Assembly (NCBI RefSeq): GCF_004010195.1
Contig: NC_057717.1
Span: 103,320,522 to 103,384,291, forward strand
Origin: Chiloscyllium plagiosum
Lineage: Eukaryota
Direction of reading: 5' to 3'
DNA: 63,770 bases
Position 1 is the first letter of the stretch. Every line of letters starts with the position of its first letter. The translations under genes and the position numbers were made by a program. Below the pieces are notes generated by a model. The model saw only the letters and a program-made list of their open reading frames with translations. It did no database searches and had not been told where the DNA came from. Positions 1 to 62,752 of the stretch are shown here, piece after piece.

Positions 1-226
1 CCGCCTCCATTTACTTATCACACTCTCAGCTATCTTCCCCTCCCAGCCCCACCCCCTCTCCCATTTATCTCTCCACCCCCTCAGCTCACAGCCTCATTCC
101 TGATGAAGGACTTTTGCCCAAAATGTTGATTCTCCTGCTCCTCGGATGCTGCCTGACCCTGCTGTGCTTTCCCAGCACCACACCCTCGACTCTAATCTCC
201 AGCATCTGCAGTCCTCACTTTCGCCT
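1..226 (+). mobile_element. Penelope-like element family A, 3' UTR and terminal repeat with degenerate hammerhead
   Basis: C-rich UTR followed by cattcCTGATGAaggacttttgcccAAAAtgttgatt and the family-A tail ...ctccagcatctgcagtcctcactttc. The same architecture follows the GIY-YIG remnant at 12830-13565. Confidence 0.7.
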
Positions 227-229
227 GTC

Positions 230-955
230 CTCATAAGACTACCCGTTCATTCTAGGTATCAATGTAAACCTACTCTGAACCATTTCCAATCCACTTATAC
301 CCTTGCTTGAACCAGGGGACCAAAACTGCACCTCGTAATTGAGATGCAGTCTCAGTACTGTAATATATAACTGAAGTGTAACATACTTACCTTTTATGTT
401 CAATTCCTCTCATGATAAAGAAGAGCGTTCCATTAGCCTTCTTACTTGCTTGCTATACTTGTGTACTCACTTTTTGTGATGCATATGCTAGAACACCTAG
501 ATCCCTCTGCACCATAGAATTCTGCAATTGCTTTTCTGTTTAAATAAAGCTCTTTTTATTTTATTCTGCATGCAAAAATGAACAACTTCACATTTTCCCA
601 CATTCCATTCCATCAGCCAAGTTTTTGCCACTCAGATCTATCTTTATCCAACTGCAAATTCCTTATGTCTTCTTCGCAATATAGTTTCTTGCTTACTTTT
701 GTGTAATCTGCAAACCTGGCTAACATGCTGCTACTCCCCTCATCTAAGTCATCATTATAAATTGTAAAAAGCCGAGGACCCTTCAGGACTTCACTCATCA
801 CATCCTGCAAATCTGGAAAAGAAAACTGCATACTCTCTGTTTTCTGCTACTCAGCCAATCCACTATCCATATGAATGTGTTACCACATTCACCATGAGCT
901 CCTCCTTTGTATTATGATGTGGCACATTGTCAAACGCCTTCTGGAAATTCAAGTG
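230..955 (-). mobile_element. Degenerate CR1-clade LINE ORF2 fragment
   Basis: Minus-strand translations include RLFTIYNDDLDEG..ARFADYTKV and LNFQKAFDNVPH, which are CR1 reverse-transcriptase motifs. Confidence 0.75.
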
Positions 956-957
956 CT

Positions 958-1266
958 TTAGCACTGCTGCCTCACAGCGCCGGAGACCCAGGTTCGATTC
1001 CAGCCTCAGGCAACCGTCTGTGTGGAGTTTGCACATTCTCCCCGTGTCTGCGTGGGTTTCCTCCGGGTGCTCCGGTTTCCTCCCACAGTCCAAAGTTGTG
1101 CAGATTAGGTGAATTGGCCATGCTTCATTGCCCATAGCGTTAGGTGAAGGGGTAAATGTAGGGGAATGGGTCTGGGGAGTTGCTCTTCGGATGGTCGGTG
1201 TGGACTTGTTGGGCCAAAGGGCCTGTTTCCACACTGTAAGTAATCTAATCTAATCTAATCTAATCT
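958..1266 (+). mobile_element. HE1-type V-SINE (tRNA-derived), 5'-truncated
   Basis: B-box GGTTCGATTCC, V-domain core gtgtggagtttgcacattctccccgtgtctgcgtgggtttcctccgggtgctccggtttcctcccaca, and a (TAATC)n tail. Confidence 0.85.
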
Positions 1267-1658
1267 GCAGGTTCCCCTTTATCCACTGCATATGTCCTTC
1301 TATCAAACAACTCTAGTAAATTGGTTAAATATAATTTCTTTAACATAAAACCAAGCTGAATCTTCTCAGTTTTTCTATAACTTCTCATATGTTTGATTCT
1401 AGCACCTTGCATTTTGTTGAGTCATTTGGGTAACATGTAACATTTTCTCAGATAGAATGAAATAAAAAAAGTCTTGAGAGTGGGAGAGCTGGATTGGATG
1501 TTGGAATGGACTTGGCTGGAGATTTGTGTGGTATATCTGAACAGTAAATATCGGACATTATTGGCAGAAGATAACAGTAGACGAGGTGGCAGCTCTTGAC
1601 ATAGATTTGGTGAAACTATGGATAGGAAGGGATTAAAAATATCATTTTTGACACTTGT

Positions 1659-1753
1659 CACTCCTCATGACCATTTACATATCGCTGTTCGTGACCGTTT
1701 ATATATCACTTCTCATGACCATTTATACATCACTGTTCATGATCAGTATACAT
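1659..1753. repeat. 24-bp minisatellite, about 4 copies
   Basis: cactcctcatgaccatttacatat / cgctgttcgtgaccgtttatatat / cacttctcatgaccatttatacat / cactgttcatgatcagtatacat. Confidence 0.8.
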
Positions 1754-3324: not shown

Positions 3325-3520
3325 AAAAGAACAAAATCTCAGCAGGTCTGGCAGCATCTACGGAGACTGCAGAAGAAAGTTAATGTTTCGAGTCTCATTT
3401 GAGTCTTTTTCTGACTCAAAACATTAACTCTGCTTTTCTTGCTCCACAAACACTGCCAGACCTGCTGAGTTTCTATAGCACTTCCTCCTTCCAGCATCCG
3501 CAGTACTTTGATTTTTGTAA
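3325..3520. mobile_element. PLE family C fold-back (inverted terminal-repeat) unit, degenerate
   Basis: ctcagcaggtctggcagcat...gttaatgtttcgagtc is followed by its inverted counterpart gactcaaaacattaactctg...ctgccagacctgctgagtt. Confidence 0.65.
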
Positions 3521-3825: not shown

Positions 3826-6200
3826 GTATAGGAGCAACATTAGGCCATTCAGCCCATCAAGTCTGCTTCACCATTTGATCATGACTGATATGTTTCTCAA
3901 CCCCATTCTCCTGCCTTCTCCCTGTAACCCTTCATCTCCGTACTAATTAAGAACCTATCTATCTCTGTCTTAAAGACACTCAATAATTTGGCCTCTACAG
4001 CCTTCTGCAGCAATGAGTTCCACACATCAGCCACCCTCTGGCTAAAGAAATTCCTCCTCGTTTCAGTTCTAAAGGGTTGTCTGTTCACTCTGAGGCTGTG
4101 CCCTCACGTCCTAGTCTCTCCCACTAATAGAGACATCTTCTCCACATCCAGGTCTCTTAGTATTCTGTAAGTTTCAATCAGATTCTCCCTCACCCTTCTA
4201 AACTCTATTGAGTATAGACTCAGAGTCCTCAAACTCTCCTCATATGGCAAGCCCTTTATCCCCAGGATCATTCTTGTAAACTTCCTGTGGACCTTCTCCA
4301 ATGCCAGCGCATCATTCGTTCAATACAGAGCCCAAAGCCGCTCACAATATTTCAAATGTGGTCTGACCAGAGCCTTATACAGCCTCAGCAGTACATCACT
4401 GGTCTTGTATTCTAGGTCTCTTGAAATGAATGCCAACATTGCATTTGCCTTCCCAACTGCCAACTGAACCTGCATATAAAGAATCATGAACAAGAACTCC
4501 CAAGTCCCTTTGAACATCAGATTTCTGAGACCTTTCCCCGTTTAGAAAATTGTCAGCACCTCTGTTCGTCCTGCCAGAATGTATAATCCCACACTTGCCC
4601 ATATTGTGCTCCATCTCTCACGTTTTTGCCTACTCTCTCGGCCTGTCTAAGTCCTTCTACAGCCTCCCCACTTCCTCCACCAGTCTGTCCCTCCACCTTT
4701 TTTGTGTCATCTGAAAACTTAGCAACAATGCCTCAGTCCCTTTATACAGATCGCTAGCGTGAATAGTTGTGGTCCCAATACTGACGCCTGCAAAACTCCA
4801 CTAGCCACTGGCTGCCATCTTGAAAAAGACCCTTTTATCTCCACTCTCTGCCTACTGCCAGTCAGCCATCTGCTATCCATGTTAGTACCTTTCCATTAAC
4901 ATCATGGGCTCTTACTCTATCAACAGCCTCCTGTGCCGCACCTTTACAAAGACCTTATCCAAATAAATCATGTTCACAGGCTCACCTTTGTCTAACTTGA
5001 TCATTGCCTTCTGAAAGAATTCCAGCAGATTTGTCAGGCATGACCTCTCCTTGACAAAGCTGTGTTGAGTCAGCCCTACTTCACCACGCATTTCCAAGTA
5101 CTCTGCAATCCCATCCTTAATAATGAACTCTAAAATCTTACCAACGAGTGAGGTCAGCCTAGGCGAAAGTGAGGACTGCAGATGCTGGAAACTAGAGTTT
5201 AGATCAGAGTAATGCTAGAAAAGCACAGCAGGTCAGGCAGCATCCGAGGAGCAGGAAAATCAATATTTCAGGCAAAAGCCCTTCACCAGGAATAGAGGCC
5301 TAACCAGCCTATAGTTTCCAGTCTTCCAGCCTCCCTCCCATCTTAAACAGGGTGTTACATTAGCCATTTTCCAGTCCTCTGGGGCCCTCCCCAACTCCAC
5401 TGATTCCTGAAAGATCACCACCAATTCCTCTACAATCTCCTCAGTTATCTCCTTCAGAACCCTGGGGCATAGTCCTTCTGATCTGGGTGATTTATCCACC
5501 TTCAGACTTTTCAGCTTCCCCGGCACCTCCTCCTTAGTGATGGCCGTCACACTCACCTCCTCCCCTTAATACGTTTCCCCTTCCTTGGGATGAATTGCTG
5601 CTGTGCTTCTGAATTGCCCCTAGAAACTCCTGCCATAGCTGCTCCATTGTCTTGCCTGTTCGGGCCCCCTTCCAGTCAACTCTGGTCAGCTCCTTCCTCA
5701 CATCTTTGTAGCTCCCTTTACTCAATTGCAATACCACTACATCTGATTCCAACTTCTCCCTCTCAGGCCGTAGGGTGAAGTCTATCATATTATGGTCACT
5801 GCTCCCTAGGGGTTCCTTCACCTTCAGCTCCCCATCATTACGCATCACTAATCCAGATTTGCCTGTTCCCTAGTGGGCTCTATCATAATCTGCTCCAATA
5901 ATAACCTTCTCCTATACATTTCACAAATTCATTTTCTTGAGATCCACACCAACCTGGTTCTCCCAGTCCATCTGCATATTGACGTCCCCACGATTAATGT
6001 AACGCTGCCTTTCTTACTTGTTTTCCTGCCTCCTGAACTATTTTCTCCCCCATGTCCTGACTATAGCTAAGAGGCCTGTACACAACTCCCATTCGGTTTC
6101 CTTTATCCCCTTGCAGTTTCTCAACTCCACCCACACAGATTTTGACCCTCCATCGCTTCTTGCTCTTGATTTAATTTCATTTCTTGCTAACGAGACAAGG
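3826..6200 (-). mobile_element. CR1-clade LINE, about 2.3 kb fragment of ORF2 and 3' end
   Basis: Successive minus-strand ORF pieces: LGSSDHNMIDF, LKVDKSP..PRVLKE, QHSFVKERSCLTNLLEFF, LYKALVRPHLKYC, RRNFFSQRVADVWNSL. Interrupted at 5161-5293. Confidence 0.9.
5161..5293 (-). mobile_element. PLE family A solo terminal repeat nested in CR1
   Basis: aaagtgaggactgcagatgctgg...caatatttcaggcaaaagcccttcaccaggaat, the reverse complement of the hammerhead-bearing repeat. Confidence 0.75.
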
Positions 6201-7949: not shown

Positions 7950-8262
7950 GTCATTCATGGGATGAGGGCATCACTGGCTGAGCCCAGTATTTATTGCCCA
8001 TCCCAGAGGGCAGTTCAAAGTCAACCACCTTGCTGTGGGTCTGGAGTCACATGGAGGCCAGACCAGGTAAGGATGGCCGTTTCCTTCCTTGAAGTACATT
8101 AGTGAACCGGATGGGCTTTTCCAAAAATTGACAATGGATTCATGGTCATCATTAGACCTTACTTCCAGATTGTTAGTGAATTCAAATTCCACCATCTGAC
8201 CTGACAGGATCCAAATCTGAGTCCCCAGAACATTAAGTTGGTGTCTGGTTTAAAATGCCACT
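7950..8262 (-). mobile_element. Second tRNA-derived SINE family (CR1-like tail)
   Basis: Homologous copies at 34445-34770 (+), 59000-59310 (-), 60200-60670 (+) and 62810-62945 (-), all sharing the core ggtctggagtcacatgtaggccagacca. Confidence 0.7.
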
Positions 8263-8650
8263 GAAAATAAGATTGGGTCCATCCTCCACCACATCATTGA
8301 TTGGCATTAGAGAGGGGAGTGGTGGCAGCTCTCTCCCCAGCCTCAGTACTGCAGTAGTTGGCACCCAGGCATCACATCCTTCAGGACATGGTGCATGGAA
8401 GTGTAGATTAGCAGACTCACATAACCCAATCAGAGAAGCTGCATTCAGTTTCCTCAAAGTAGAGAAGGTGAGGAGGGGTGGGTGGGGGAGCTGTTCAAAA
8501 ATTAAGAAAGGTTTTGAAAAAGTAATTTTGCAAGTGGATTGCTCACCAGTGGGCACAGCTTTGACTGTCAAAGAACCACAGTGAAGGCACAGCGACAGAA
8601 ATCGCTGGAAAAGCTCAGCAGATCTGGCAGCACCTGTGAAGAGAAATCAG

Positions 8651-8686
8651 AGTTAACGTTTCGGTTCCAGTGACCCTTCCTCAGAA
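8651..8686 (-). ncRNA. Minimal type-I hammerhead ribozyme motif, family C
   Basis: Reverse complement is ttCTGAGGAagggtcactggaaccGAAAcgTTaact: core boxes intact, one mismatch in stem II. Confidence 0.6.
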
Positions 8687-8974
8687 TGGATGGGAGCTGG
8701 GAAACAGTTGTCTTTTTTAATGCAGAAGATAGGCTGGGGGAGAGGGGCTAGGAGTAAACGATAGGTGGCAATAGAGCCCAAGAGAGAGAAGAACAGATTG
8801 ACCCACAAAGTAGTGGAAAACTATCAGCCTGGGAGAATGAGTAGCTGCTAATGGGGACTATTTGTGGTTAACAATGTGGTGGAGGTGGGTACTGCAGGTG
8901 CTGGAGATTAGAGTCAAGATCAGAGTGATGCTGGAAAAGCACAACAGGTCAGGCAGCATCCAAGAAGCAGGAAA

Positions 8975-9009
8975 ATCAACGTTTCGGGCAAAAGCCCTTC
9001 ATCAGGAAT
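8975..9009 (-). ncRNA. Minimal type-I hammerhead ribozyme motif, family A
   Basis: Reverse complement is attcCTGATGAa-gggc-tttt-gccc-GAAA-cg-TT-gat: intact core, 4-bp stem II, ACGT palindromic stem III. Confidence 0.7.
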
Positions 9010-10184
9010 GTGTTGCATATAATAACAGACCATGTGATAATATGCCTGGTGTGTGGGGTTTGGGGTAAGGACAAGGGAGAAGGCGCCTCAAACCCTACAA
9101 TTATTGAACTCGATATTGAGTCCAGAAGGCTATAGAGTTCCCAAGTTGAAAATGAGGTGCTGTTCTTCCAACTTACGCTGAGCTGCGATGGAGCGTTGCA
9201 GTAAGCCTGAGACAGAGATGTTGGCCAGGGAACAGGGTGGGGAGGACTGCAGATGCTGGAGATCAGAGTCCAGAGTGTGGTGCTGGAAAAGCACAGCAGG
9301 TCAGGCAGCATCCCAGGTGAAAGTGAGGTCTGCAGTCCTCCCAACATGACCACTGTGAAGGTGTGGTATTGTTTTCAAACACTAGAATGGAAGCTGAGTC
9401 AGTCGTTACCTTCGAAAGGCAACTGGGTTAAGTAACAGGAAAAGGGCCAGGTCACGTGGGACTAATTGGATAGCTCTTTCACAGTCACGATGGGGTGAAT
9501 GGCCTCATCCACCTCCCCCCACACCCCTGGTGCTGTCAGACTCTCTGCTTTGAGGAGAAACCAGCAATCAGCATATCGAAGGTTGCTGCTTTTAGCAGGC
9601 TCTGTTCAGTTCCCAAACTGCGATGTAGATCTCCTCGAGGGAGAAGAATAATCTCAGCTTTTTCAAGAAAACAAGACTGTGAAACCCTGGAAGATAAACA
9701 AGCCCACGCTTCAGGACATTAAACTAATATTATTCAAACTTGACCTATTGTGTTCCACAGATGGCAGCCTCAGAGGCTCAGTCAAACGTGGTTGAAGTCG
9801 GCTGAATACATGATCACTAATATGAATCATTATCCTTCAAACTTTTCATCGTTGCCATAACCAAACAATCTAATGCGATTTTACCGAGAGCTTATTGACA
9901 TTGCACTGAGTTTGATTAGTGACATCTCTACATATTTGGTAGAGCAGAAATTTCTCTAATCCTGTAATCCTAAATTTAATTTAGCTAAACATTATTCAAC
10001 TTAAATAGTGATTGCATTTTAAACTAAATAACCTTTATCTAAATTAAACTGGAATTACTGGATGCAAACATATCACAGGTGATACTGGATATTTGAAGAA
10101 CGTTGCTCTATCGCACAGCAGATGGGTCCTGCCAAGAGGACAGACATACCTATCCCTCCTCTCTCTCACTGTCGTTGACTGCTT

Positions 10185-11035: not shown

Positions 11036-11293
11036 GGAGGAAGCGAGGGCTGCAGTTGCTGGAGATCAGAGTCGAGATGTTCCTCTTACAGACCGTGTGG
11101 TGCTGGGAAAGCACAGCAGGTCAGGCAGCATCCGAGGAGCAGGAGAATCGACGTTTCAGGCATAAGCCTTTCATCAGGAATCGATGGCCTACTGATGAAG
11201 CGCTTATTCCCGAAACGTCGATTCTCCTGCTCCTCGGATGCTGCCTGACCTGCTGTGCTTTCCCAGCACCACACGGTCTGTAAGAGGAACATC
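11036..11293. mobile_element. PLE family A fold-back unit with perfect 82-bp arms
   Basis: 11076-11157 is the exact reverse complement of 11212-11293, and the ORF track shows the same peptide on both strands. Hammerhead boxes face each other in the loop. Confidence 0.85.
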
Positions 11294-12595: not shown

Positions 12596-12829
12596 ATACC
12601 CTTTCTATATTTTTGCAATCTCCTTTTTTTAAAATACAGAACAAACTTCCTTTCAATGGGATCTTATAGTTTCTGCCTCCATCATTACCTCTGTGGGACA
12701 AAACAAGTTCTCCCTTTGAGAAAGAGTGTTAAAACAAAGCTCAGGGGTGCAGAATGCCCTGGCCTCATCCCAACAAAGTCGGAGGCAAATATTAAACCCT
12801 TAAACCTCAACAATCCAACTGCAACAAGG

Positions 12830-13565
12830 ATAGAAACCACCCCCTCCCCCCACCAGTCCTCACCTTCCACCCCACTAGTCTCTGGATACAGTGCGTTATC
12901 CTCTGCCATTTCCACACCAGAGATATATTTCCCTTCCCAACCCTATTGACATTCCGCAGAGAATATTACCTCTGCAACGCCCTCGTTAGATCCACACGTC
13001 CCACCTTCCCTTGCCACCACAAGAGGTGTAAAACCTGCATCCACACCTCCCCCCACACCTTATCCAAGGCCCCAGAGGATCCCTCCACATCTGGCAGAGA
13101 TTTTCCTGCACGTTTCACTTACCTCGTGTACTGTGTCCGTTGGTCTCAATGTGCTCTCCTCTATATCAGGGAGCCAGAACGCCAACTCACAGAACATTTC
13201 AGGGAACATCTCTGGGAAATACGCACCAAACAACCCCATCGCCTTGTGGCCAATCACTTCAACTCCCCCTCCCACTCCACCAAGGACATGCAAGTCCTGC
13301 GCCTCCTCCACTACCAAATCCAAGCAACCCATCTCTTGGAAGAAGAACACCATATCCTCTCCCTTGGGACTCTTTAACCACATGGCATTAACATCGATTT
13401 CACCAGTTTCCTCATCTCCCCTCCCTCAACCTTTCTCTCAACCCCCTTCCCCCACCTCCTCCCTACATTCCTGATGAAGTGCTTATGCTTGAAATGTCGA
13501 TTCTCCGGCTCCTCGGATGCTTCCTGACCTGCTGTGCTTTTCCAGCACCACACTCTCGACTGCTG
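12830..13565 (+). mobile_element. PLE family A 3' fragment: GIY-YIG endonuclease remnant plus hammerhead terminal repeat
   Basis: ORF 12946-13377 contains FPCHHKRCKTC..LVYCVRWSQCALLYIRE..RQLTEHFREH..VANHFNSPSHS..LGTL (Cys linker plus GIY-YIG with CCHH-type residues, as in Penelope/Neptune elements). It is followed by cattcCTGATGAagtgcttatgcttGAAAtgTCgatt at about 13466-13503. Confidence 0.85.
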
Positions 13566-14359: not shown

Positions 14360-14550
14360 AGAAAGTGAGGACTGCAGATGCTGGAGATCAGAGCTGAAAA
14401 ATGTGTTGCTGGAAAAGCGCAGCAGGTCAGGCAGCATCCGAGGAACAGGAGATTAAGGGCTGAAGAAGGGCTTATGCCCGAAACATCGATTCTCCTGCTC
14501 CTTTGATGCTGCCTGACCTGCTGCGCTTTTCCAGCAACACATTTTTCATC
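14360..14550. mobile_element. PLE family A fold-back unit with 8-bp TSD
   Basis: Inverted arms; TSD cactaagg at 14352-14359 and 14551-14558; loop contains CTGAAGAagggcttatgcccGAAAcaTC. Confidence 0.8.
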
Positions 14551-16309: not shown

Positions 16310-16885
16310 CACACCCACACACTCACCCACACGCACACCCACACACACACACCCTCTCACACACACATACATACACTCACACACACACACACTCGCATAT
16401 ACACCCACACGCNNNNNNNNNNNNNNNNNNNNNNNNNNNNNNNNNNNNNNNNNNNNNNNNNNNNNNNNNNNNNNNNNNNNNNNNNNNNNNNNNNNNNNNN
16501 NNNNNNNNNNNNNNNNNNNNNNNNNNNNNNNNNNNNNNNNNNNNNNNNNNNNNNNNNNNNNNNNNNNNNNNNNNNNNNNNNNNNNNNNNNNNNNNNNNNN
16601 NNNNNNNNNNNNNNNNNNNNNNNNNNNNNNNNNNNNNNNNNNNNNNNNNNNNNNNNNNNNNNNNNNNNNNNNNNNNNNNNNNNNNNNNNNNNNNNNNNNN
16701 NNNNNNNNNNNNNNNNNNNNNNNNNNNNNNNNNNNNNNNNNNNNNNNNNNNNNTACAGTCACACACATACCCACATATACACACACACATTCACATACAC
16801 ACACACACACACACTCACATACACATACACAGCCACACACACACTCACGCACTCATCCCACACGCACACAAATATACAAACACAC
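16310..16885. repeat. Imperfect (CA)n-rich microsatellite spanning an assembly gap
   Basis: CA-rich sequence on both sides of 341 N (16413-16753). Confidence 0.9.
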
Positions 16886-17352
16886 ATGTCCAGGTTGATG
16901 CACATTTGTAGACACCTGTTGTTATGAACCCTGAATTGTAATTCTGCGCACACACCTTTGTGGAACAGAGTGATAACAGGTCACATCATGAGCTCAAGAA
17001 ACCAGAGGGAGGAAAGAGAATAGTGATGTGGATATTAAAGGGAGATTGGACAGCAGTTTTCAAAGCTATGAGAAGTGTGGACAGAATAAATGGAGAGAAA
17101 CTAGTTTTCCTTGACAGAAGGATGAGGAATCAGGGGATGGCAGACAATGACAATTAGGAAATCCCACCCGAGAGTGCAGGGGGAGACAAATTCAATCCTG
17201 GCTTTCACAGGAGAATTGGGTAATTATTCAAAGAGATTCGGTTTGTCAGCCCATGCTAAAAGGTGGGACAATGACACTACGTAAGTTATTCTTACAGAGG
17301 GCCAGCATGGATCCACAGGCCTAATGGCCTCCTTTTGTACTGTAATCATTCT

Positions 17353-17505: not shown

Positions 17506-18744
17506 CTGTAATCATTCTGCTAAATTTCTATAACGTTTTTACAGCACTGCTACAGCGCAAAAGGAGGCCATTCGGCCCATTGTGCCTGCACCAATCCTAT
17601 GATCTAATGCCAATCTGCCTTTTCCCTAAAGGCTTGCACATTATTTCTAACCAAACAGTCATCCAGTGCCCTCTCGAATGACTCAGTTGAACCTGCCTCC
17701 ACCACACTGCCAGGAAGGGCATTCCATGCCATCCCATTACCATTCCTTCAGTGTCACAGCAGCCGAGTCCTCGAACCCCATTCCCTAACCACACTCTAGA
17801 GGCATCTATGTCACTACGTCCGCACCATCTGCTACCATTTAAGTCAATCCAGAATGTATCTGCCCCTTGGTCAGTTAATGTGCTGTGGTTTAATGTATGA
17901 TAGCAACCACACTGTTGATACTTTAACCTTGCTTTTAGAAGATACTAAAGAATTGGAGAGACATTGTCAATCTAAGTCAGAACCAAGTCAGCTCTGGTTG
18001 TGGTTGTGGTGGTGGTTGTGATTCTCAGATCTCCAGCATCTGCAGTCCTCACTTTCTCCTGGTTGAGATTCTTAAGACATGCTGAGATTCAGACACAAGA
18101 TCTCACAACCCCGCTGCAGGGGATTGTCATTTGTCCAGTGGTCCATATGCCAACAAAATATCAACAAAGAATCTCGATAATTGGCATTCCAGGGGTGGAA
18201 CACAGAATATGAACGACAAGCACCTTTCTGTCGGTATTTGAATGTGTGTTCACGATCAACGGTGTGATTTAATTCCGGCAGCTTTACTCTAATCTTCCAT
18301 GACTCTGAGCAGGCACGCAGCTGATCAACGTTAAAAGGATAGCTTTGCTTCTGTGACCTTACAATTCCCTCAGGTTATTCTTGCTGCAGCTGTGCTGGGA
18401 TTAACCTTGCTAGTTACTTCCAATTCCGACCTCGCCCACGTTTGCAGGGTCACTGAGAGGATATTTAATTTGCGCAACACAAGCACAAATCCACATCGCA
18501 GCAGAAACTTGACAGATCCAGCCACTCAGGTCAGCTGCTGCGAATTCTGTGACACGTAACTCCCTTCCTGAGCCCCCACCCAAAGCCTCTCCACCATCTG
18601 CAAGACACGGGTCTAGAGTGTGATGGAATACTCCCCACTTGCCTGGATGAAAGCAGCTCCAGCAACACTCAAGAGCTGCCTACCATCCATTTGATTGGCA
18701 CTACCTTCAACATCCATTCCCTTTGCTCAGAATGGCAGCAGTGG

Positions 18745-19215
18745 ATACAGAAAAGGGTTACCAGGATGTTGCCTGGTATGGGGGATTTTAGCTCTGAAGG
18801 AAGGTTGGATAGACTGGGTTTGTTTTCACTGGAACGCAGGAGGTTGAGCGGGTGAACCGATAGAAGTCTATAAGATTGTGAATGGCATGGACAGAGTGGG
18901 AAGTATGAGGTGTTTTCCCAGGGTGGGCGGGTCACTACTCAGGGACACAGGTTAAAGGTACAGGATGGGGGGATGTTTCAAAGAGATGAGGCAGGTTTTT
19001 CACACAAAGGGGGGTGAGTGCCTGGAACACACTGCCAGAGGAGGTGGTGGAAGCAGATACAACAGCAGCTTTCAAGAAGCACCTGGACAGATACATGAAT
19101 TGGAAGGGGATAGAGGGATACGGATCCTGTAAGTGAAGACAGTTTCAGTATGGAAGGGAAAAATGTATCAGCGCAGGCTTGGAGGGCCAAAGGGCCATTT
19201 CCAGCATTGTCTTGT
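18745..19215 (+). mobile_element. CR1 LINE 3' fragment
   Basis: accaggatgttgcctggtatgg...actgccagaggaggtggtggaagcag, the CR1 ORF2 C-terminus. Confidence 0.75.
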
Positions 19216-19569
19216 TTTTTATTCAGTGTGAAACGTCTATAAGATACACGTCAGAAAGCTCCTCTAACAGCACCATTCAAACCCACAACCTCTACCAACA
19301 GGATTCTTGGAGCACCATCTCTTACACGTTCCCTTCCAAACCACTCACCATCCTGATTTGGAAAAATATCATCATTCCTTCACTGTTATGGAGTCAATAT
19401 CCTGGAATCCCCTCCCTGACAGCACTGTCAGTGGACGATACCATGTAGATTGCAGTGGCTCAAGAAGGTTGCTCATCTCCATGTTCTGATGGGACATTCG
19501 ACCTGAGCAATAAATACTGACTGTGCCAATAACACTCACATCCCTTAAAAAGGAGGGGAGACAACATCT

Positions 19570-45226: not shown

Positions 45227-45440
45227 GAGAAAGTGGGGACTGCAGATGTTGGAGATCAGAGTCGAGAGTGTGGTGCCAGAAAAGCACAGCAGGTCAGGCA
45301 GCATCCGAGGAGCAGGAAAATCGGCATTTCAGGAATAAGCCTTTCCTTTCCTGATGAAGAGCTTATGCCCGAAATGTTGATTCTCCTGCTCCTCGGATGC
45401 TGCCTGACTTCCTGTGCTTTCCCAGCACTATGTTCTCAAC
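45227..45440. mobile_element. PLE family A fold-back unit
   Basis: Inverted arms around ttcCTGATGAagagcttatgcccGAAAtgTT. Degenerate 16-bp TSD: ctgctgggaaattgag (45211-45226) / ctgctaggggattgag (45440-45455). Confidence 0.8.
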
Positions 45441-51071: not shown

Positions 51072-51200
51072 TGGATGAAGGGCTTTTGCCCGAAATGTCG
51101 ATTTTCCTGCTCCTCGGATGCTGCTTGACCTGCTGTCCTTTTCCAGCACCACTCTGATCTGGACTCTGGTTTCCAGCATCTGCAGTCCTCACTTTTACCT
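51072..51200 (+). mobile_element. PLE family A solo terminal repeat with 10-bp TSD
   Basis: TSD ctggcaaata at 51053-51062 and 51199-51208; gatgaagggcttttgcccGAAAtgTC. Confidence 0.8.
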
Positions 51201-51503
51201 GGCAAATATTTGCTGAGCCAATCAGCTTGGTTAACCTGTCCTCGGCTTTCTTTGACGTGGTGTCTCCATGCATCTCATTCGGTGACAACTGTCACCTCCT
51301 GCAGGCTTTCAAACAGAGAGGTTGAGCCTTCCCACCCTGTCTCCTGTCTCCTACAGAATGCAGCAAGTTGCCAGAGTTTCTTCTCCAGCCAAGTCGAGAC
51401 GCGTTTGAGAGCTCATGCAGGAGTCCATCCGAGATGTTAAAGCCGTCAAAGGCCAGCGTGGAGAAATGTTGTTGAGGGACCAGATCAGGCATATCCTGGT
51501 TGA

Positions 51504-51694
51504 CAAGCAGGAGGCTGGAAGAACACAGCAAGTCAGGCAGCGTCAGGAGGTGGAGAAGCTAACCCTTCTTCAGGACTGTAGCATTACACTCGAAACGTTG
51601 ACTTCTTCACCTCCTGATGCTGCCTGGCTTGGTGTGTTCTTCCAGCCTCCTGCTTGTCTACCTTGGATTCCAGCATCTGCAGGTTTTTTTGTCT
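51504..51694. mobile_element. PLE-type family D fold-back unit
   Basis: Arms gacaagcaggaggctggaagaacac... / ...gtgttcttccagcctcctgcttgtc. Hammerhead halves are cttcttcaggact (reverse complement agtcCTGAAGAag) and cGAAAcgTTgact. TSD atatcctggttga / ataccctggttga at 51491-51503 and 51695-51707. Confidence 0.7.
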
Positions 51695-52789
51695 ATACCC
51701 TGGTTGAAGCAGTGTCAATGGGCCGAATGGCCTTTACCCATTTCAAAGGCATTTGGCCAGGTACATGAGTAGGAAAGGTTTAGAGGGATATGGGGCAAAC
51801 ACTGGTAAGTGGAACTAGTTTAGTTTGGGAGACTTGGTTGGCACAGTCAAGTTGGTGTGAAGTTTCCATTATGTATGACTCCATGCTAAAAGGCATTGGT
51901 GAAACAATGCTGTATGTTAACTGATAGCACTCTGGAATCGCACACATTAAACCACACTGACCACCCCTCTCCCCTCCAACTGGGTAACCATTGACACTCT
52001 GACTTACAGCTCAGCGCCAAAATCCGAGCGGATTAATTTACTTAACCCGAGGAGGTCAGTCTTGTCAATGAGGTTGGGGAGGGGACTATACAGATGCTCC
52101 AACTGTTGGTTAATTCTGTGGGGTTTCTCTGTTGCTTGGGCCGGTTTCTCTAACGAGTGCTTTCCACCAGACTACTGAAGAAGGTCTATTCTCCACTCCC
52201 CTTTCTCTCCAAATACCCAAACCTCCCACACAGATATCTGTGTTTTTTGCTTTGTCCATCGGCTGTCTTATCATCTCCAGCCTTTTATCTGATCGTTGAT
52301 TCAATCCTTGATCCTATTCGCGATATGAAACATAACAAGGCATGTGGGAACATGGTGTTGAGATGGAATAGAATAGGTAGAGCCCTAATTTGGCATGTTG
52401 TGGTGCAGACCCGATGGGCTGAAAGGCGTAATTCTGTGAGGAATTGGAACCTCATTGTTACTGTTGGCTTTTGCTTGACCTTGTGGTTGAGCCAATAAGA
52501 GATGGGGCTAACTTTTGTTCCATCCACAACTCCAACTCGGTGCATTTGTTACTGACCATCATCTTCCACTATCAGTCCCAGGAGCACGTAGACACGTTAA
52601 GGTGGGTGCATCCTGCAGATGGTAAGCTCACCTCTCTACCTGCCCAGTCAGTCTCTCTCCTCCTCCTCTCTCTGCCTATTCCCTTCTCATTTCTGTCTCA
52701 CCATTTTCTCTCTGCTCCACCCCTCCACGTCTCCCCGTCTCTCTCTTTGAATGCGAAGTGCAGACTTTGCAAAACACTTACTTTCTGAC

Positions 52790-53372
52790 TGCAAATATGA
52801 CCCTGAGCTTCCAGTTGCCTACCACTTCAACACCCTACCCTGTTCCCTGGCCAACATCTCTGTCTCAGGCTTGCTGCAGTGCTCAAGTGCAGCTTAGCAC
52901 AAGCTGGAAGAACAGCATCTCATTTTCAACTTGGAGACCCTGTGGCCTTCACGAGTTAAAATCGAGTTCAATAATTTGAGGGCATGAGCAACTTCTCCAA
53001 TGTCCTTAACCCAACCCCCCACACACCAGACCCCTGTCATGACAACCATCCCATTGTCAGCCACTAATGGTGTCCATTAGCTATTCATTTTCCCAGGCTG
53101 ACCTTTACCCAGGTCCTCTGTCTGCCCAGTTGTTGTTCTCTGTTTGGGTTCCATATCCGCCTGTCGTTTACTCCACCCTCCATCCCACACCCCGACTTCA
53201 ACATATGCACCAACCTTTCCCTAGCTGCAATCAGTTCCGGAAAAGGGTCACTGGACCAGAAATGTTAACTTTGCTTTTGCTTTCCACAGATGCTGCGAGA
53301 CCTGCTGAGCTTTCCCAGCAATTTCTGTTTTTGTTACTGATTCCCAGCATCTGCAGTTCTTTCGGGTTTTTT
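52790..53372 (+). mobile_element. PLE family C 3' fragment (GIY-YIG C-terminus, UTR, terminal repeat)
   Basis: Translates DPELPVAYHFNTLPCSLANISVSGLLQCSSAA*HKLEEQHLIFNLETL; degenerate hammerhead agttCCGGAAAagggtcactggaccaGAAAtgTTaact at about 53233-53270; homologous to 8586-9240. Confidence 0.8.
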
Positions 53373-53770: not shown

Positions 53771-53889
53771 GGAAACAAAGTTGGGGACATTGTGATATTA
53801 ATGTAGAAAGCTTGCCAAAGTTTGTCTGCAACTTTGAATCTCATCGGCACCATCTCCGTTTTCCTTAAAAACAGCAGACCGAAGTCTCG

Positions 53890-54102
53890 AAACAAAAACA
53901 GAAAATGCTGGAGAAACTCATCAGGTCTCGCAGCATCTATGGGAAGAAAGCAGAGTTAACATTTCAAGTCCAGTGTCCCTGCTCCAGAACAAGACATAAA
54001 ACATTGATTCTTTCTCTCTCTCTACAGATGCTACCAGACCTGCTGAGTTTTGCCTGCATTCTGTTTGCTTCAGATTCCCAGCATCTGCTGTTCTTTGTTT
54101 TA
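53890..54102. mobile_element. PLE family C fold-back unit, degenerate
   Basis: aaaaacagaaaatgctggagaaactc...gttaacatttc followed by the inverted ...acattgattct...cagatgctaccagacctgctgagtt. Confidence 0.65.
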
Positions 54103-55755: not shown

Positions 55756-56255
55756 NNNNNNNNNNNNNNNNNNNNNNNNNNNNNNNNNNNNNNNNNNNNN
55801 NNNNNNNNNNNNNNNNNNNNNNNNNNNNNNNNNNNNNNNNNNNNNNNNNNNNNNNNNNNNNNNNNNNNNNNNNNNNNNNNNNNNNNNNNNNNNNNNNNNN
55901 NNNNNNNNNNNNNNNNNNNNNNNNNNNNNNNNNNNNNNNNNNNNNNNNNNNNNNNNNNNNNNNNNNNNNNNNNNNNNNNNNNNNNNNNNNNNNNNNNNNN
56001 NNNNNNNNNNNNNNNNNNNNNNNNNNNNNNNNNNNNNNNNNNNNNNNNNNNNNNNNNNNNNNNNNNNNNNNNNNNNNNNNNNNNNNNNNNNNNNNNNNNN
56101 NNNNNNNNNNNNNNNNNNNNNNNNNNNNNNNNNNNNNNNNNNNNNNNNNNNNNNNNNNNNNNNNNNNNNNNNNNNNNNNNNNNNNNNNNNNNNNNNNNNN
56201 NNNNNNNNNNNNNNNNNNNNNNNNNNNNNNNNNNNNNNNNNNNNNNNNNNNNNNN
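55756..56255. other. Assembly gap (500 N)
   Basis: Run of N; the round length suggests a placeholder gap of unknown true size. Confidence 0.95.
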
Positions 56256-57064
56256 AAAGCCCAGGACCCTGAAAGGTGTTGAACTTCACTCCCTACCTTG
56301 TAGGTCGGCAATCCTTCCTCACAGCAAATTCAAAAACCAGCTTCTTAACCCACCTCAGATCACACAATATTCTTCTTTCCTCTTCCTTTCTTTCAAGGGC
56401 CGTGGGCATCAATCCAGCATTGGTCGCCCATCCCTAATTGCCCTGGAGCTGAGCGATTGGGAGACTTTAACTGATGGCCTGTCTGGAGGAAAGTCTTAAT
56501 TGGACCTTTAACCAAATCAAATATTTACAATTCAGAGCAAAGGGAATTCATTTTGTTTATAACGAGGAGTGCTGTTTAAAATGAGGGATAACCTGGATAT
56601 AGAAAATGAGTATATACAGAGACCTCACAGAGTGCCTTTCAGAGCAGGTACTTGCTTGTGATTAATTGAATTGAATTGATGAACACACATATGAGTTAAT
56701 AGATACATTTTCCCATTAATTCTGAGAATTAACTCCTTCATAAGTGGTAAATTATCAGGCAGTTCAGGGAAGTTTGTGGGAGAGAGTTCCACCTGTTTAT
56801 AACCCATTGTGAGATGGAATGTCTCCCGGTTTCTCTCCTTTTGATTCTGTCATACAGTCCCCATGAGCCCGTCTAGATCCTTTCAACACCTTAAATGCTC
56901 CAATTGAATAACCAACTTTTAACACATGGAATTGTGAAAAGTGCAAGAGGTAGAATGGAAAAATTATTTTTCAGCTCCAGTTAAATCTTCACTGCTAATT
57001 TATATAACTGATCTTCACATTTTAATTCTTGGAGATCTGTTGTACGTGTACCTTGCCTTTAAGA

Positions 57065-57197
57065 CAAACACCTGATGAAGGAGCAGAGCTCTGAAAGGTA
57101 GTGCTTCCAAATAAACCTGTTGGACCATAACCTGGTGTTTTGTGATTTTTTTTTAAACTGTGTACACCCCAGTCCAACACCGGCATCTCCAAATCAT
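57065..57197 (+). mobile_element. PLE family B solo terminal repeat with 9-bp TSD
   Basis: cacCTGATGAaggagcagagctctGAAAggTAgtg; TSD tgcctttaa at 57054-57062 and 57197-57205. Confidence 0.8.
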
Positions 57198-57334
57198 GCC
57201 TTTAACAGAGCTCACCTTTAAGAGCACCATGTGCTGTGTGTATACAGTATTGTGACTCTGTCTGTCTGTTGACCTGCTGTGGGTTTGCAAGCTGCACATA
57301 TACAAATGAAAATTGAAAGAACTGCTGTAAGTCA

Positions 57335-57510
57335 GAAACAAAAATAGAGAGTGTTGGAAAAGCCCAACAAGTCGGGCAACATCTGTGGAGAGAAAGCAGA
57401 GTTAACATTTCGGTTCAAGTTCTGAGGAAGGGTCACTTGACCCGAAACATTAACTCTGATTTCTCTCTCCATGGGCCTGCTGAGCTTTTCCAACAATTTC
57501 TTTTTGTTTC
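57335..57510. mobile_element. PLE family C fold-back unit
   Basis: Termini gaaacaaaaa / tttttgtttc with inverted arms around a hammerhead. Confidence 0.75.
57418..57455 (+). ncRNA. Minimal type-I hammerhead ribozyme motif, family C
   Basis: agtt-CTGAGGA-a-gggtc-actt-gaccc-GAAA-ca-TT-aact: perfect stem I (agtt/aact) and stem II; stem III CG has decayed to CA. Confidence 0.65.
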
Positions 57511-58460: not shown

Positions 58461-60266
58461 ACCCCTCTCATCAGCTGCTTCCAGGTCAAATACTCACTCA
58501 CTACTAATCTCCTAACCAAGATCGTTGTCAATTCTCCCCCTTCCAATTCTATTTTACTTAAGCCCTCTCCCCCTCTCCCTACCTCTCCCTCACCTAAATC
58601 AATCTGATTATTCTTATCAGGCTTTATACATAAATTATTCAATTGGAAAATGCGGATGATTCATTGGTGTTAGTTAATAAATGTTAAAAACAAAATGGGT
58701 AATCTGTTGATGGGGAAAAAGAACATTCAGTTTTGTGTAAGAGCATTTCTAGATATAGACAAAACTGAAGAAAACAAATATCATTTGTCTTCAATTCCTA
58801 GGGATATAGATTTAGCAAGTGATCCCTAAAATGGAATGCTATTGGAGGTGAACATCATCAGCTACAAATGCCCCTCTAAATGATACATCACCCTGACTTG
58901 GAAATACATCACTGTTCCTTCATCACCGCTGGGTCACAATTCTATCACTGCCTTGCACACAACATTATGGGAATGCAATTTTTAAAATTTATTTATTCAT
59001 TAGGGTGTCGCTGACTAGACCAGCATTTATTGCCCATCCCTAATTGTCCAGAGGGCAGTTAAGAGTCAACCGCAAAGCTATAGGTCTGGAGTCACACGTA
59101 GGCCATACCAGATCAGGATGGCAGTGTCCTTCCCTAAAGGATATTTATGAACCAGATGGGTTTTCCAACAATTGACAGTGGACTCTTAACTCAAGATTTT
59201 TTCTTGAAAAAAATGAATTCAAACTCTACCATGATGGGATTTGAATCCAGGTCCCCAGAACATTAACGTGGTCTCTGGGTGAAGAGTGCAGCTATAACAC
59301 CACTAGCCCATCACGTTTCCTTTGATGCACCCAGCATCACCCAGGGATGGACAACAAACGTTACTTTGTCTTTGTATCTCAAGCATCTTTTTTATTTAAA
59401 ATTGGTAATGGAATTGCTGACGTCTGGAACTAAAGGATTCAGATGGGAGATGGCAAGTGGAGAATTATAGGGCTTCCTCACGTTTGCAGCAAAATACGCA
59501 GTTTTTTAAAAAAAAAATCAGCTTTGTAGGTGCTCATAAATCATCTGTTGCTTTTCCCAGCCCCTGCACTGTGAGAAGCAGCTGTAGATTAATGTAAGAC
59601 TTTGAGGCACGTTGTTTATTAACACATTCTTCCCAGCTTCCTTGTCTTTTTCAGCTAATGCATTCTGTTTGTTAAAATGAAAAAAGCCATCTGATTAAAA
59701 TTTGTAAACAATATTTAGTGTCATTCAGGGGTCTAGGGGGATGTAGGTGTATTTTAAGACAAGGATTTTGAATTTCATAAGCAAAACAAGTGTCAAGGAG
59801 ATTGATGTTACATTCGCTGATTCATAAATTAGATGCCAAACCAAGCAAAACGTTTCAATTTAGCTATGGATAAACTGTCAGATTAAATTACTGGACACAA
59901 ATTACATCTACTTTCTTTAAAGATGCATGTGCAGGTATAATGATATCCTGTTCCCACATGGCTGTTTGCATTGTTACTGAGGAAAGGCATGGTTTCAGCT
60001 GAATTCCTTTCAGTATCTCTCTCTGCAAAGCGCCACCTGTAACAGGCAGTTAACAAGGCAGGATTTGAGGACACTTTTGTGTTCATTCATTGATGGGATC
60101 AACCCCATTCATAATTGTCTTTGCACTGACTAGCTTCCTCAGCTAGCTCCACATTCTAGCTGAGAGTCAATCACATCGCCGTGGGTCTGAAGTCATAGGG
60201 AGGTGACAGCCATAGTGGTAATATCGCAGGACTGTTAATCCAGAGACCCAGACGCTGTTCTGGGGA

Positions 60267-60392
60267 AGAGTGAGGACTGCAGATGCTGGAAACCAGAGTT
60301 TAGATTAGAGTGGTACTGGAAAAGCACAGCAGGCCAAGCAGCATCCGAGGAGCAGGGAAATCGACGTTTCGGGCAAAAGCCCTTCATCAGGA
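60267..60392 (-). mobile_element. PLE family A solo terminal repeat inserted in a SINE (60200-60670), 11-bp TSD
   Basis: TSD tgttctgggga at 60256-60266 and 60393-60403. Confidence 0.85.
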
Positions 60393-60393
60393 T
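60360..60393 (-). ncRNA. Minimal type-I hammerhead ribozyme motif, family A (intact)
   Basis: Reverse complement is atc-CTGATGA-a-gggc-tttt-gccc-GAAA-cg-TC-gat: stem I atc/gat, stem II, ACGT palindrome, GUC triplet. Confidence 0.75.
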
Positions 60394-61689
60394 GTTCTGG
60401 GGACCCAGGTTCAAATCCTGCTATGGCAGAAGGTGGAATTTGAATTCAGTCAAAATCAGAATTAGGGACCTAATGATGACCACAAATCCATTTCTGATTG
60501 TGGGGGAGGAAAACCCATCTGGTTCACTAATGTCCTTTAGGGAAGGAAACTGCCATCTTTACCCAGTCTGGCCTACACGTGACTTCAAATCCACAGCAAC
60601 ATGGTTGACTCTTAACCACCTTCTGGGATGAGCAATGAAGACTGGCTCAGCCAGCAACACCCTCATGAATTAAAAAAAGGTAATGATAACAAATTTCCCT
60701 TACTAAACAAATGTCACCATTTCTAATGTCAAGTCTTGAATTTAGGATTTATTAACTAAAGTTAAATTCCAGAAACTGCCATGGGCTGGATTTGAACCCA
60801 TAACCTCCAACCACTAGGCTAGTCCTGTAGTGTACTGGTTAACAGACAATACCAGTATCCCACCATGTCTGTGCTAGCCTGTCTACGAGATGCATTAGCT
60901 TATGTGGTCATTGGGGAGGAAGATTCTGGGCATCAGTTTCCTCAAGGCAAATGTTATGAGTCTTGGAGGCATCACTGAATTCCCTACATCATTCCCCCGC
61001 ACCCCCCCCCCCCCCGGCAACAACAATTTATAGTGCACGTTCTGTATATTAACATGACCTGGCAATCGAGGACCAGAACAATTATCAAATTAAATTCAAC
61101 CCTGGGCGACTTAAGGCCACATTCAGCTGACCAAAGGCTTAGCCAAGGCAGCAGGTCTTAGAAGATTCTGAGAGAAAGAAGGCAAGGGAGAGATGGAGAG
61201 ATGGGAGTCCAGAGCTTGGAGTCCAGGCACCTGAGGTACGGCCAATAATGATGAAGGGACTGTGACCAGGGGTATAGAGGTTGGTAGGTATCTCAGAGGA
61301 TTTTGGGTTGGAGGGGTTTCAGAGATAAGGACCTCATTGGTCCCTGGGGCTTGTACCCAGACTGCCATGCTGCCTACGAGGTTATCACTTAATGAGATCT
61401 AAGCCCCTTTGCTCAAGAGTAGTCCTCTGCAGTTTCCCCGAGCTGTGTGTCCTACAACCTCTCAAACCAGTTCTGCTCTTCAGTTACAGAGTGGGTGATC
61501 AGATATCATCACACTGTGGGTTCTATGCAACTTCGGCATCTGAATTGACCAGGAATTGCTGACCCCTCACTGACCCCCTCCAGCTCATCACCCAGGGCAA
61601 AGGGATAGGAAGGCAAGTGAGAGGGACCAGGATTGCAAATGAGGCAATGAGAGGGCAGTGAGTGGGGGTGGTGGAAGGGGAGAGAATAA

Positions 61690-61978
61690 GTGAGAGGAGG
61701 GAGCAAGGGAGGTAGTGAGTGAAATGAGGCAATGAGGAAGGTGAGGATAGTGAGTTAAATGGGGCAATGAGTGAAATGAGGGAGGGAGTGTGGTAGGTGA
61801 GGATAGTGAGTGAAATAAGGGAGTGAAATGAGGCTGGGCAATGAGTGAAATGAGAGAGTGAGGGAGGTGAGGATAGTGAGTGAAATAAGGCAGCAAGGGA
61901 GGCAGTGAGTGAAATGAGGGAGGGAGGTGAGGATAGTGAGTGAAGTGAGACAGCAAGGGAGGTAGGGATAGTGAGTGA
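61690..61978. repeat. Purine-rich degenerate minisatellite (gaggtgaggatagtgagtgaaat motifs)
   Basis: Recurring subunits; 61861 and 61921 both begin agggaggtgaggatagtgagtgaa (60-bp period). Confidence 0.8.
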
Positions 61979-62442
61979 CTTCCTTTTCCAGTGTGGTGAC
62001 CAGAGCTACGATGATTTATCCTCCATATCAGCTTCCTCACACCTTTATCATCTCACCAAATCACCATAACTCTGTATACTTGTCTCCATCAGGCATATAC
62101 CCATCTTACCCTCAAATATACTTGTGTCATCTGTCTGACAGGGCTACACAGGGGAAACATAGGAAGGTTATTCCCGATGACCGCGGAGTTCAGAACCAGG
62201 GTCACACTCTAAAGATACATGGTCGGCCATTTGGAACTGAGCGGAGGAGAAATGTCTTCACCGAGAGAGTAGGGGGGGGCGGGGTTCTGTAGAACTCTCT
62301 GCCACAGAAAGCAGTTGAAACCAAAGCATTGAATATTTGCAAGAAGGAGATAGATATAGTTCCTGGGGTGAAAGCGATCACAGGGAGAAAGTGGGACCAG
62401 GGGACTGAGTTGGATGGCCAGCCATGACCATATTAATGGTGG

Positions 62443-62752
62443 TGAAAATGTGTTGCTGGAAAAGCGCAGCAGGTCAGGCAGCATCCAGGGAACAGGAGAA
62501 TCGACGTTTCGGCCATAAGATGATAAAGGTGTGAGGAAGCTCATAGGGAGGCCAGCATTTATTGTCCACCCCTAATTGCCCAGTTAAGAGTCAGTCACAT
62601 TACTGTGGGTCTGGAGTCAAGTGTAGGCTAAATCAGGCTTATGCCCGAAACGTCGATTCTCCTGTTCCCTGGATGCTGCCTGACCTGCTGCGCTTTTCCA
62701 GCAACACATTTTCAGCTCTGATCTCCAGCATCTGCAGACCTCACTTTCTCCT
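62443..62752. mobile_element. PLE family A fold-back unit with 14-bp TSD and captured flanking DNA
   Basis: TSD catattaatggtgg at 62429-62442 and 62753-62766; inverted arms; loop 62546-62637 duplicates 62817-62908. Confidence 0.88.

Follow-up and report, generated by a model that had tools for sequence, protein, structure and literature searches.

Are the short hammerhead-like repeats scattered through a vertebrate genome mobile elements in their own right, or are they the ends of larger ones? The question is raised by a stretch of 63,770 nucleotides from Chiloscyllium plagiosum (NC_057717.1, positions 103,320,522 to 103,384,291; the whole of this stretch is called the window below). A sequence-only reading had described in it more than 20 short repeats in at least five sequence-distinct families, all with the order CTGANGA, hairpin, GAAA of a hammerhead ribozyme, and had proposed that they are non-autonomous miniature elements mobilised as units by Penelope-like elements (PLEs). 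We consider it very probable that the repeats are instead the 3′-terminal ends of endonuclease-bearing PLEs with a known minimal hammerhead, present as truncated and decayed copies and as fold-back pairs.

A minimal hammerhead beside Penelope-like endonuclease remnants

Both strands of the window were scanned loosely for CTGANGA, 6-26 nt and GAAA, which returned 15 sites. Eleven lie inside repeat families, where they had been reported, and four are unrelated (22907, 31301, 35857 and 36906). A strict minimal-hammerhead descriptor demanded exact boxes with 0-1 bulged nucleotides behind the first one, at least 4 bp in stem II, complementarity of positions 15.2 and 16.2 right after GAAA, and then U16.1 and a non-G H17. 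It yielded four sites (8978-9005(-), 11150-11177(-), 28358-28386(+) and 60363-60390(-)), compared with a mean of 0.01 and a maximum of 1 in 300 dinucleotide-preserving shuffles.

Iterated nhmmer profile searches, seeded with one copy of each quoted family (A, B and C), delineated 31 A/C and four B arms in the window, 35 in all, so the count of more than 20 repeats stands. The number of families does not. The A-seeded and C-seeded iterations converge on the same places and therefore define one homologous superfamily, in which 26 of the 31 arms form a single cluster (80% single linkage); the B arms are separate. From the sequences we see two unrelated families, A/C and B, with several subfamilies, rather than five distinct ones. 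The quoted A and B strings occur in the window exactly as given. The C string is absent from it, its two best copies there being one letter off each, and occurs 108 times in the genome.

Judged by its sequence, the motif shows every published hallmark of the minimal hammerheads of PLEs (PMC4209133). The ribozyme region is present in 19 of the 35 arms, and all 19 have a bulged A directly after CUGANGA, that is, an unpaired nucleotide between A9 and 10.1. Both catalytic boxes are exact in 10 of them. The intact copies of A and B and the best copy of C all close stem II with a G10.1-C11.1 pair. Helix III forms a loop-less palindrome of four letters (ACGU for A and C, AGCU for B) and is kept in six of the 19 arms; the losses are mostly CG>TG or CG>CA. 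U16.1 is present and position 17 is C, U or A, giving predicted cleavage sites GUC, GUU and CUA. Helix I measures 2-3 bp in A, 3 bp in B and 4 bp in C. The sole core letter that varies between lineages is N7, which is U in A, G in C and A in a third subfamily. The whole motif is intact in only four arms; the other 15 are defective, often at CpG (CG>TG or CG>CA in helix III, CCCG>CCCA at G12). A minimal type-I architecture with a palindromic, loop-less helix III in Penelope-derived repeats is thus supported.

The stems differ between families and still pair, as had been claimed. Stem II is spelled GGGC/GCCC, GGGTC/GACCC or GGAGC/GCTCC, and helix I (a)ttc/gat(t), agtt/aact or cac/gtg, with atc/gat in the copy at 60363-60390. 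The outermost stem II pair is GC in 14, GU in four and AU in two of the 22 sequences with letters there, and the outermost helix I pair is CG in 10 sequences and UA in 10. A covariance model built from 12 A/C copies (R1) found 24 A/C sites and missed family B; it is therefore not a general detector of minimal hammerheads. Across these 24 sites, 80.1% of stem cells pair, compared with 73.5% in shuffles, and none of 500 shuffles reaches the observed value. With the partner slid, only 12-52% of cells pair, in an alignment that was itself fitted to the model. Two-sided changes occur in five of the eight stem pairs, a count that 32 of the 500 shuffles reach. The alignment leans towards structure, and the changes are few events common to many copies.

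A second conserved box lies downstream of the motif, at about unit positions 45-80 of the A and C arms (for example 60311-60346). It consists of a run starting GATGCTGCC followed by a TCCAGCA-like run. A and C agree in this box as closely as they do in the catalytic core, and B lacks it; the element's reverse transcriptase (RT) may recognise it.

What ties the repeats to PLEs is their position. At four sites in the window a unit follows a remnant of a GIY-YIG-type endonuclease region, 97-646 nt downstream (Table 1), in agreement with the sequence-only reading. The B spacer is lengthened to its 646 nt by a CA-rich, microsatellite-like stretch (~29040-29300) between remnant and unit. Pfam searches of 86 window frames gave no GIY-YIG match, and the remnants hold the endonuclease part only. 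Elsewhere the link recurs. The 193-aa remnant has 109,717 first-look endonuclease candidates in the 3.56-Gb genome, and nine of the 10 N-free loci examined for linkage (L009, the window itself, and L011, which contains an N run, were left out) carry a same-strand unit no more than 350 nt past the end of the endonuclease frame. A 400-aa frame from one endonuclease locus matches 20 proteins of 706-1010 aa, down to E=3e-94, and all three of these homologues that were scanned contain both RVT_1 and GIY-YIG by Pfam. The same genome has an uninterrupted 674-aa frame with RVT_1 at 31 bits (cut-off 29.6) and GIY-YIG at 21.4 (just under the cut-off of 22.6). The derivation of the repeats from PLEs is supported.

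Some candidates were discarded on the way. The sole RVT_1 match in the window (36011-36517(-), E=1.5e-14) is in a frame unrelated to the Penelope remnants and was rejected as a PLE part; it belongs to another retroelement, probably a fragment of a long interspersed nuclear element, and a perfect 40-nt x2 tandem repeat (35800-35879) adjoins it. Apparent open frames of 964, 1071 and 764 aa proved to be artefacts of N-masked stretches. The window itself has N runs at 16413-16753 and 55756-56255, the first flanked by (CA)n arrays (16310-16410 and 16760-16886), and N runs occur at many other genome loci, several of them directly beside endonuclease matches.

Truncated copies, fold-back pairs and decay

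If the units were elements in their own right, where would they begin? Young copies, meaning those with an exact core, give the clearest view. Five of eight young A copies share at least 70 nt of sequence upstream of the ribozyme, and the other three are cut at about -39, -19 and -7; three of four young B copies extend at least 70 nt upstream and the remaining one is cut at about -8. The impression that solo copies begin sharply at the ribozyme was accordingly rejected; it arises mostly because the spacer is too diverged between subfamilies for BLAST to follow. No head sequence common to the units was found, and none of the 11 Tandem Repeats Finder rows for the window is an array on any unit. 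Same-strand neighbouring units are separated by endonuclease remnants, partial tandems are present in the window and at other loci, and one arm of a tight pair agrees at 97.7% with the 3′ end of a copy that has the endonuclease and lies elsewhere. From the variable 5′ ends, the lack of a head and of arrays, and the 97.7% match, we conclude that the units are the 3′ ends of truncated autonomous copies. No separate family of miniature elements was found, and the claim that such elements are mobilised as units is not sustained; copies were 5′-truncated at insertion.

The 3′ ends of young copies fall into two classes about 40 nt apart (three short and five long in A, two and two in B). The same two lengths meet in the inverted pairs of the window, where six of eight A/C pairs combine an arm ending at unit position 71-92 with one that runs to 115-116. 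At 8596-9325(-), three same-strand units are spaced by 320 and 321 nt. The order here is a unit tail and then a 5′-truncated C-lineage copy that begins within the endonuclease and whose spacer seems to contain a nested A unit; the arrangement is a partial tandem and no repeat array.

A large share of the copies is arranged head to head. Of the 35 window arms, 16 belong to eight tight pairs; of the 21 arms in six arbitrary genome loci, eight belong to four such pairs. Thus about 40% of arms are in such pairs, with tails outward and mostly symmetric about a tiny centre. In five of the eight A/C pairs of the window, the arms are at least as alike to each other as to any other copy. For a genome-wide count, a tight junction was defined as the first ten ribozyme letters facing their own reverse complement. 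There are 7,228 such junctions with a spacer of 0-30 nt, 1,145 with 31-60 nt and 771 with 61-90 nt, and none in controls, so that 79% of the 9,144 have a spacer of at most 30 nt. Among the first 50 junctions listed in the 0-30 nt bin, four are, by eye, exact palindromes and about seven more are off by one or two central letters; about 38 of the first 50 listed in another spacer bin are, again by eye, symmetric over at least 20 nt. The centres and fillers of the junctions differ from copy to copy, which indicates that the inverted pairs were made at insertion. The apparent discrete size of the repeats is due mainly to this turn-round hot spot just 5′ of the ribozyme, together with the divergence of the spacer between subfamilies.

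Seventeen of the 31 A/C arms begin at unit position 1-6, and in window pairs arm starts also cluster in loop II (unit positions 12-17). In the young A subfamily, many of the longer fold-back junctions have their centre close to a TTATCTCTCC-like site some 38-45 nt upstream of the ribozyme, as was also noted at one genome locus (L001), about 39 nt upstream of the unit. This hints at a second turn-round hot spot near that site.

How numerous are the repeats, and do they work? Exact cores number 18,175 for A, 2,601 for B and 108 for C, with none for reversed-pattern controls. The 21 arms of the six arbitrary 10-kb loci make up 3.7% of the 54,903 bases that could be read there, from which the arms total on the order of a million (10^6), a rough extrapolation from a small sample. 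The very large population that had been proposed is therefore real. One vertebrate genome contains tens of thousands of exact, and probably about a million decayed, minimal-hammerhead motifs from at least three Penelope lineages. Freeing the four letters of loop II raises the A count from 18,175 to 21,180 (3,005 variants), and freeing GAAA raises it to 21,688 (3,513 variants), mostly through CpG change at G12. Among copies, GAAA is thus no better kept than loop II, and selection on the motif is visible only between lineages. The copies are neutrally decaying fossils and not working ribozyme genes in their own right, and they are documented here as such.

Unit copies are present in transcripts. 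One poly(A) single-cell RNA run gave 1,194 raw reads on the unit, from both strands and with depth near zero at the unit edges; a second run gave no reads on it, and no RNA record containing the stretch was found. At 60350, 64 reads continue as the reverse complement of the tail of the same unit (0.99 agreement), and these are probably from one transcribed inverted pair elsewhere with its junction at about unit position 41.

How the repeats may arise

We propose that the repeats represent the 3′-terminal 85-130 nt of endonuclease-bearing PLEs of at least three lineages (A, C and B), in which the motif starts about 100-650 nt past the GIY-YIG frame and its distance to the end of the insertion is about 85 nt in the short form and 115-130 nt in the long one. 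Within the RNA of active source elements, the motif may pair with a second copy through the palindromic ACGU or AGCU helix III and, so paired, may cleave after GUC, GUU or CUA, probably weakly and with protein help. Literature on other PLEs suggests that cleavage would process transcripts longer than one unit. Reverse transcription would tend to stop no more than about 15 nt 5′ of the ribozyme, after which the nascent cDNA would fold back and copy itself to give a head-to-head pair; such a preferred stop could give the impression of discrete miniature elements. The cause of the stop may be that the template RNA ends there, or that the folded or protein-bound ribozyme is a roadblock.

A more specific form of this idea is that Penelope reverse transcription prefers to end at the ribozyme, either because the dominant template is a discrete RNA of about 130 nt that comprises ribozyme and tail, or because the folded, protein-bound ribozyme is a roadblock; the cDNA would stop up to about 15 nt 5′ of the ribozyme and fold back. 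We put this forward tentatively and regard it as doubtful. If true, the hammerhead shapes the insertion products, and a few per cent of a 3.6-Gb vertebrate genome consists of hairpin units of about 200 bp.

Several observations weigh against the explanation as a whole. Rfam hammerhead models gave no match at any threshold tried, either on the window (gathering score or E<=10) or on stretches of 81-91 nt surrounding intact copies of A and B (E<=10). Helix I has only 2-4 bp. For two of the three copies tried, the minimum-free-energy folds predicted for monomer and dimer prefer other pairings, and only the copy at 9005 is predicted to fold with an intermolecular AACGUU helix. An inverted pair is predicted to fold into a hairpin of -117 to -180 kcal/mol that buries the motif. 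The GAAA box decays like loop II among genomic copies. RNA reads show no pile-up of starts or ends, the predicted cut site included, in a poly(A) single-cell library that is a poor test of cleavage. Junction symmetry is the one line of evidence from which the fold-back mechanism is drawn. Lastly, stretches beside several endonuclease matches and long copies read N and no full-length copy is readable, for which reason RT, endonuclease and ribozyme have never been seen in one copy.

Could the short units, solo or as hairpin pairs, nevertheless be discrete non-autonomous elements, with their own template RNA of about 130 nt copied in trans by PLE machinery in the manner of a short interspersed nuclear element (SINE) or a retrozyme? 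Most arms reach the ribozyme and then stop, tight pairs are common both in the window and at arbitrary loci and mostly have short spacers, and the units, at roughly 10^6, outnumber the first-look endonuclease candidates. A preprint (10.64898/2026.07.22.740005), in its available text, also derives animal retrozymes from PLE terminal repeats. However, the young copies that continue at least 70 nt upstream, the scattered cuts in the others, and the absence of both a common head and tandem arrays do not fit elements with ends of their own; pair arms are up to 97.7% identical to endonuclease-linked 3′ ends, and fillers as diverse as those seen show that the pairs were not inherited from one hairpin master. 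We think such elements quite unlikely. A similar hairpin-based alternative, that the inverted pairs are microRNA-like genes of the host and no transposon debris, draws on the great predicted stability of the near-perfect hairpins and on sub-threshold Rfam microRNA-family matches on five pairs. These score 21-41 bits, far below the gathering scores of 62-104, and need nothing beyond the hairpin shape to explain them; decay affects the arms as it does other copies, and thousands of such junctions have different centres, which makes a host function extremely improbable. Since the pairs mimic microRNA hairpins, they risk being mis-annotated as microRNA genes. Rfam searches of the window and of small stretches otherwise gave only sub-threshold microRNA-like and tmRNA-like chance matches.

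It is also conceivable that the module of CUGANGA, hairpin and GAAA is kept for a role other than cleavage, such as protein binding and positioning near the RT start or as the turn-round roadblock. The weakness of helix I and the lack of an Rfam match would agree with this, as would the poor cleavage of published minimal hammerheads in vitro (PMC4209133) and, according to the available text of PMC11167929, the finding that cleavage of an anole element depended on protein and that insertion in vitro could do without cleavage. Between A and C, conservation is as strong in the neighbouring downstream box as in the core, and the turn-round hot spot adjoins the module. Yet three lineages keep every letter of the catalytic core, their stems change compensatorily, only the ribozyme-tolerated positions N7 and H17 vary, and the palindromic helix III persists in two spellings. 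We judge a purely non-cleaving role to be unlikely, and we retain the reading of truncated PLE 3′ ends with a minimal hammerhead.

The units and remnants of the window are collected in Table 1. Some neighbouring sequences fall outside these families. A tRNA T-arm-like stretch occurs just upstream of the intact A copy (60400-60450) and again at 8177-8233, 34517-34540 and 59237-59263; these stretches look like a tRNA-derived SINE fragment, and ARAGORN called no tRNA gene in the window. Minisatellites at 61701-61944 (17/35-nt periods) and 1658-1754 (24-nt period) are unrelated to the hammerhead repeats.

Table 1. Repeat units, inverted pairs and PLE remnants of the window. For pairs, each arm is given from its start to its outward end.
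Feature	Position	Strand	Remarks
A unit, solo	100-213	+	GAAA changed to CAAA
Head-to-head pair, C-like	3333-3505	.	both arms from unit position 16-17; CUGANGA absent
A unit, solo	5173-5289	-	core is CTGGTGA
C unit	8596-8684	-	boxes intact; stem II decayed
A unit	8890-9005	-	intact minimal hammerhead 8978-9005, GUU site; 128 nt past remnant 9246-9133
C-lineage endonuclease C-terminal remnant	9133-9246	-	tblastn with A-lineage remnant, E=0.004
A unit, 5′-truncated (unit positions 33-116)	9245-9325	-	abuts remnant 9246-9133; partial tandem
Head-to-head pair	11049-11279	.	(-) arm 11177 to 11049 long, intact hammerhead 11150-11177; (+) arm 11192 to 11279 short, stem II decayed; 14-nt filler; arms 95% alike
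PLE endonuclease-region remnant	12796-13374	+	193-aa open frame; C-x4-C-x2-C motif before GIY-YIG-like block
A unit	13471-13561	+	97 nt past remnant 12796-13374; CG>TG; stem II decayed
Head-to-head pair	14370-14546	.	(-) arm 14454 to 14370, starts at about unit position 30; (+) arm 14460 to 14546, CUGAAGA, helix III CG>CA
Tail-only fragment (unit positions 92-117)	18023-18048	+	found by nhmmer
B head-to-head pair	28274-28439	.	(+) arm has intact minimal hammerhead 28358-28386: AGCU helix III, CUA site, helix I cac/gtg
B-lineage PLE endonuclease remnant	28628-29029	+	134 aa, divergent block; blastp with A-lineage remnant, E=0.002
B unit	29667-29757	+	646 nt past remnant 28628-29029; GAAA changed to CAAA
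C-like unit	32414-32510	-	core decayed
C-like unit, 5′-truncated at unit position 20	34950-35048	-	found by nhmmer
A unit, 5′-truncated at unit position 46	40333-40400	-	found by nhmmer
C-like unit, decayed	42383-42469	-	found by nhmmer
C-like unit	43519-43595	+	CUGAAGA; GAAA box decayed
Head-to-head pair	45238-45439	.	(-) arm 45347 to 45238 long; (+) arm 45351 to 45439 short; hammerhead decayed
A unit	51074-51187	+	first box decayed (TGGATGA)
Head-to-head pair, divergent subfamily	51502-51683	.	arms 87% alike; at most 71% to any other copy
C-lineage endonuclease C-terminal remnant	52757-52942	+	tblastn with A-lineage remnant, E=5e-4
C unit	53239-53358	+	295 nt past remnant 52757-52942; core decayed
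Head-to-head pair, C-like	53881-54092	.	(-) arm 53987 to 53881; (+) arm 53992 to 54092; cores decayed
B unit	57063-57151	+	boxes intact; helix III decayed (GGTA)
Head-to-head pair, C type	57323-57506	.	(+) arm 57422 to 57506: 5-bp stem II, 4-bp helix I, CG>CA; (-) arm 57417 to 57323 begins in loop II
A unit, solo	60275-60390	-	intact minimal hammerhead 60363-60390; helix I atc/gat (3 bp)
Looser inverted pair	62447-62739	.	arm starts 118 nt apart; (-) arm 62518 to 62447 short; (+) arm 62636 to 62739 long; arms 99% alike
Sub-threshold microRNA-like Rfam matches	11126-11244, 14404-14529, 45292-45410, 51523-51637, 53895-54069

Comparison with known systems

So, is this a new ribozyme system? Minimal hammerheads were described in the terminal repeats of metazoan PLEs by Cervera and De la Pena in 2014 (PMC4209133). 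The published motifs have the same boxes, the bulged nucleotide between A9 and 10.1, the G10.1-C11.1 pair, a short helix I, and a loop-less palindromic helix III that implies dimers. They likewise occur as many consensus families per genome with compensatory changes and include opposite-strand pairs, and most copies are single, which was ascribed to truncated PLEs. Stem II has 4-5 bp here and 7-8 bp in the Schistosoma families, and opposite-strand pairs are 0-30 nt apart rather than about 100-700 bp. The published helix I has about 4-5 bp, and that of the present motifs 2-4 bp. The lineages of this genome are absent from those named in the available main text of that paper.

A second point of reference is PAc, a Poseidon element of Anolis carolinensis, which according to the available text of PMC11167929 has RT and GIY-YIG and a hammerhead in its terminal repeat, a parallel to the elements proposed here. 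Its ribozyme is placed there at the junction of repeat and open reading frame, with the start codon inside, whereas the motif described here is read 3′ of the endonuclease frame. The same text reports that both target strands are cut and extended, and that two adjacent internal start sites of reverse transcription explain the genomic 'tail'. Endonuclease-bearing PLEs are further known, from the accessible portion of PMC8557442, for 5′ truncation, partial tandems (pseudo-long terminal repeats), an adjacent inverted 5′-truncated copy and a one-sided tail of 30-40 bp. All four habits are seen in the window and at other loci, and the short and long arms and the two 3′-end classes match this one-sided tail and the two RT start sites of PAc. 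The clustering of inversion points 5′ of the ribozyme and the symmetry of the junctions are not stated in that portion.

Non-long-terminal-repeat retrozymes of animals, as described in the text available for PMC7229834 and 10.64898/2026.07.22.740005, also have type-I hammerheads related to PLE repeats. They are head-to-tail tandem arrays that give circular RNAs, whereas the units here are dispersed or inverted, with no array in the window. The preprint sampled 31 vertebrate genomes, one of them chondrichthyan, according to the same text. Our literature search found no paper on these PLE lineages or on hammerheads in cartilaginous fishes, and, among the matches listed, none on a fold-back or inverted-duplication mechanism in PLEs, which does not show that the point is unpublished. 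Available parts of two whale-shark papers mention PLEs, one of the two reporting a PLE expansion in introns, and a PLE expansion in a shark genome is on record in bioRxiv 10.1101/443036.

Taken against this background, the motif system is the known PLE minimal-hammerhead system, with an architecture published in 2014 (PMC4209133), and the lineages are new members of it. The ribozyme-adjacent fold-back hot spot is the one modestly new observation and the sole part that adds to what is in print. If it holds up, it would connect the ribozyme in a testable way with the insertion mechanism of Penelope elements, which is poorly understood.

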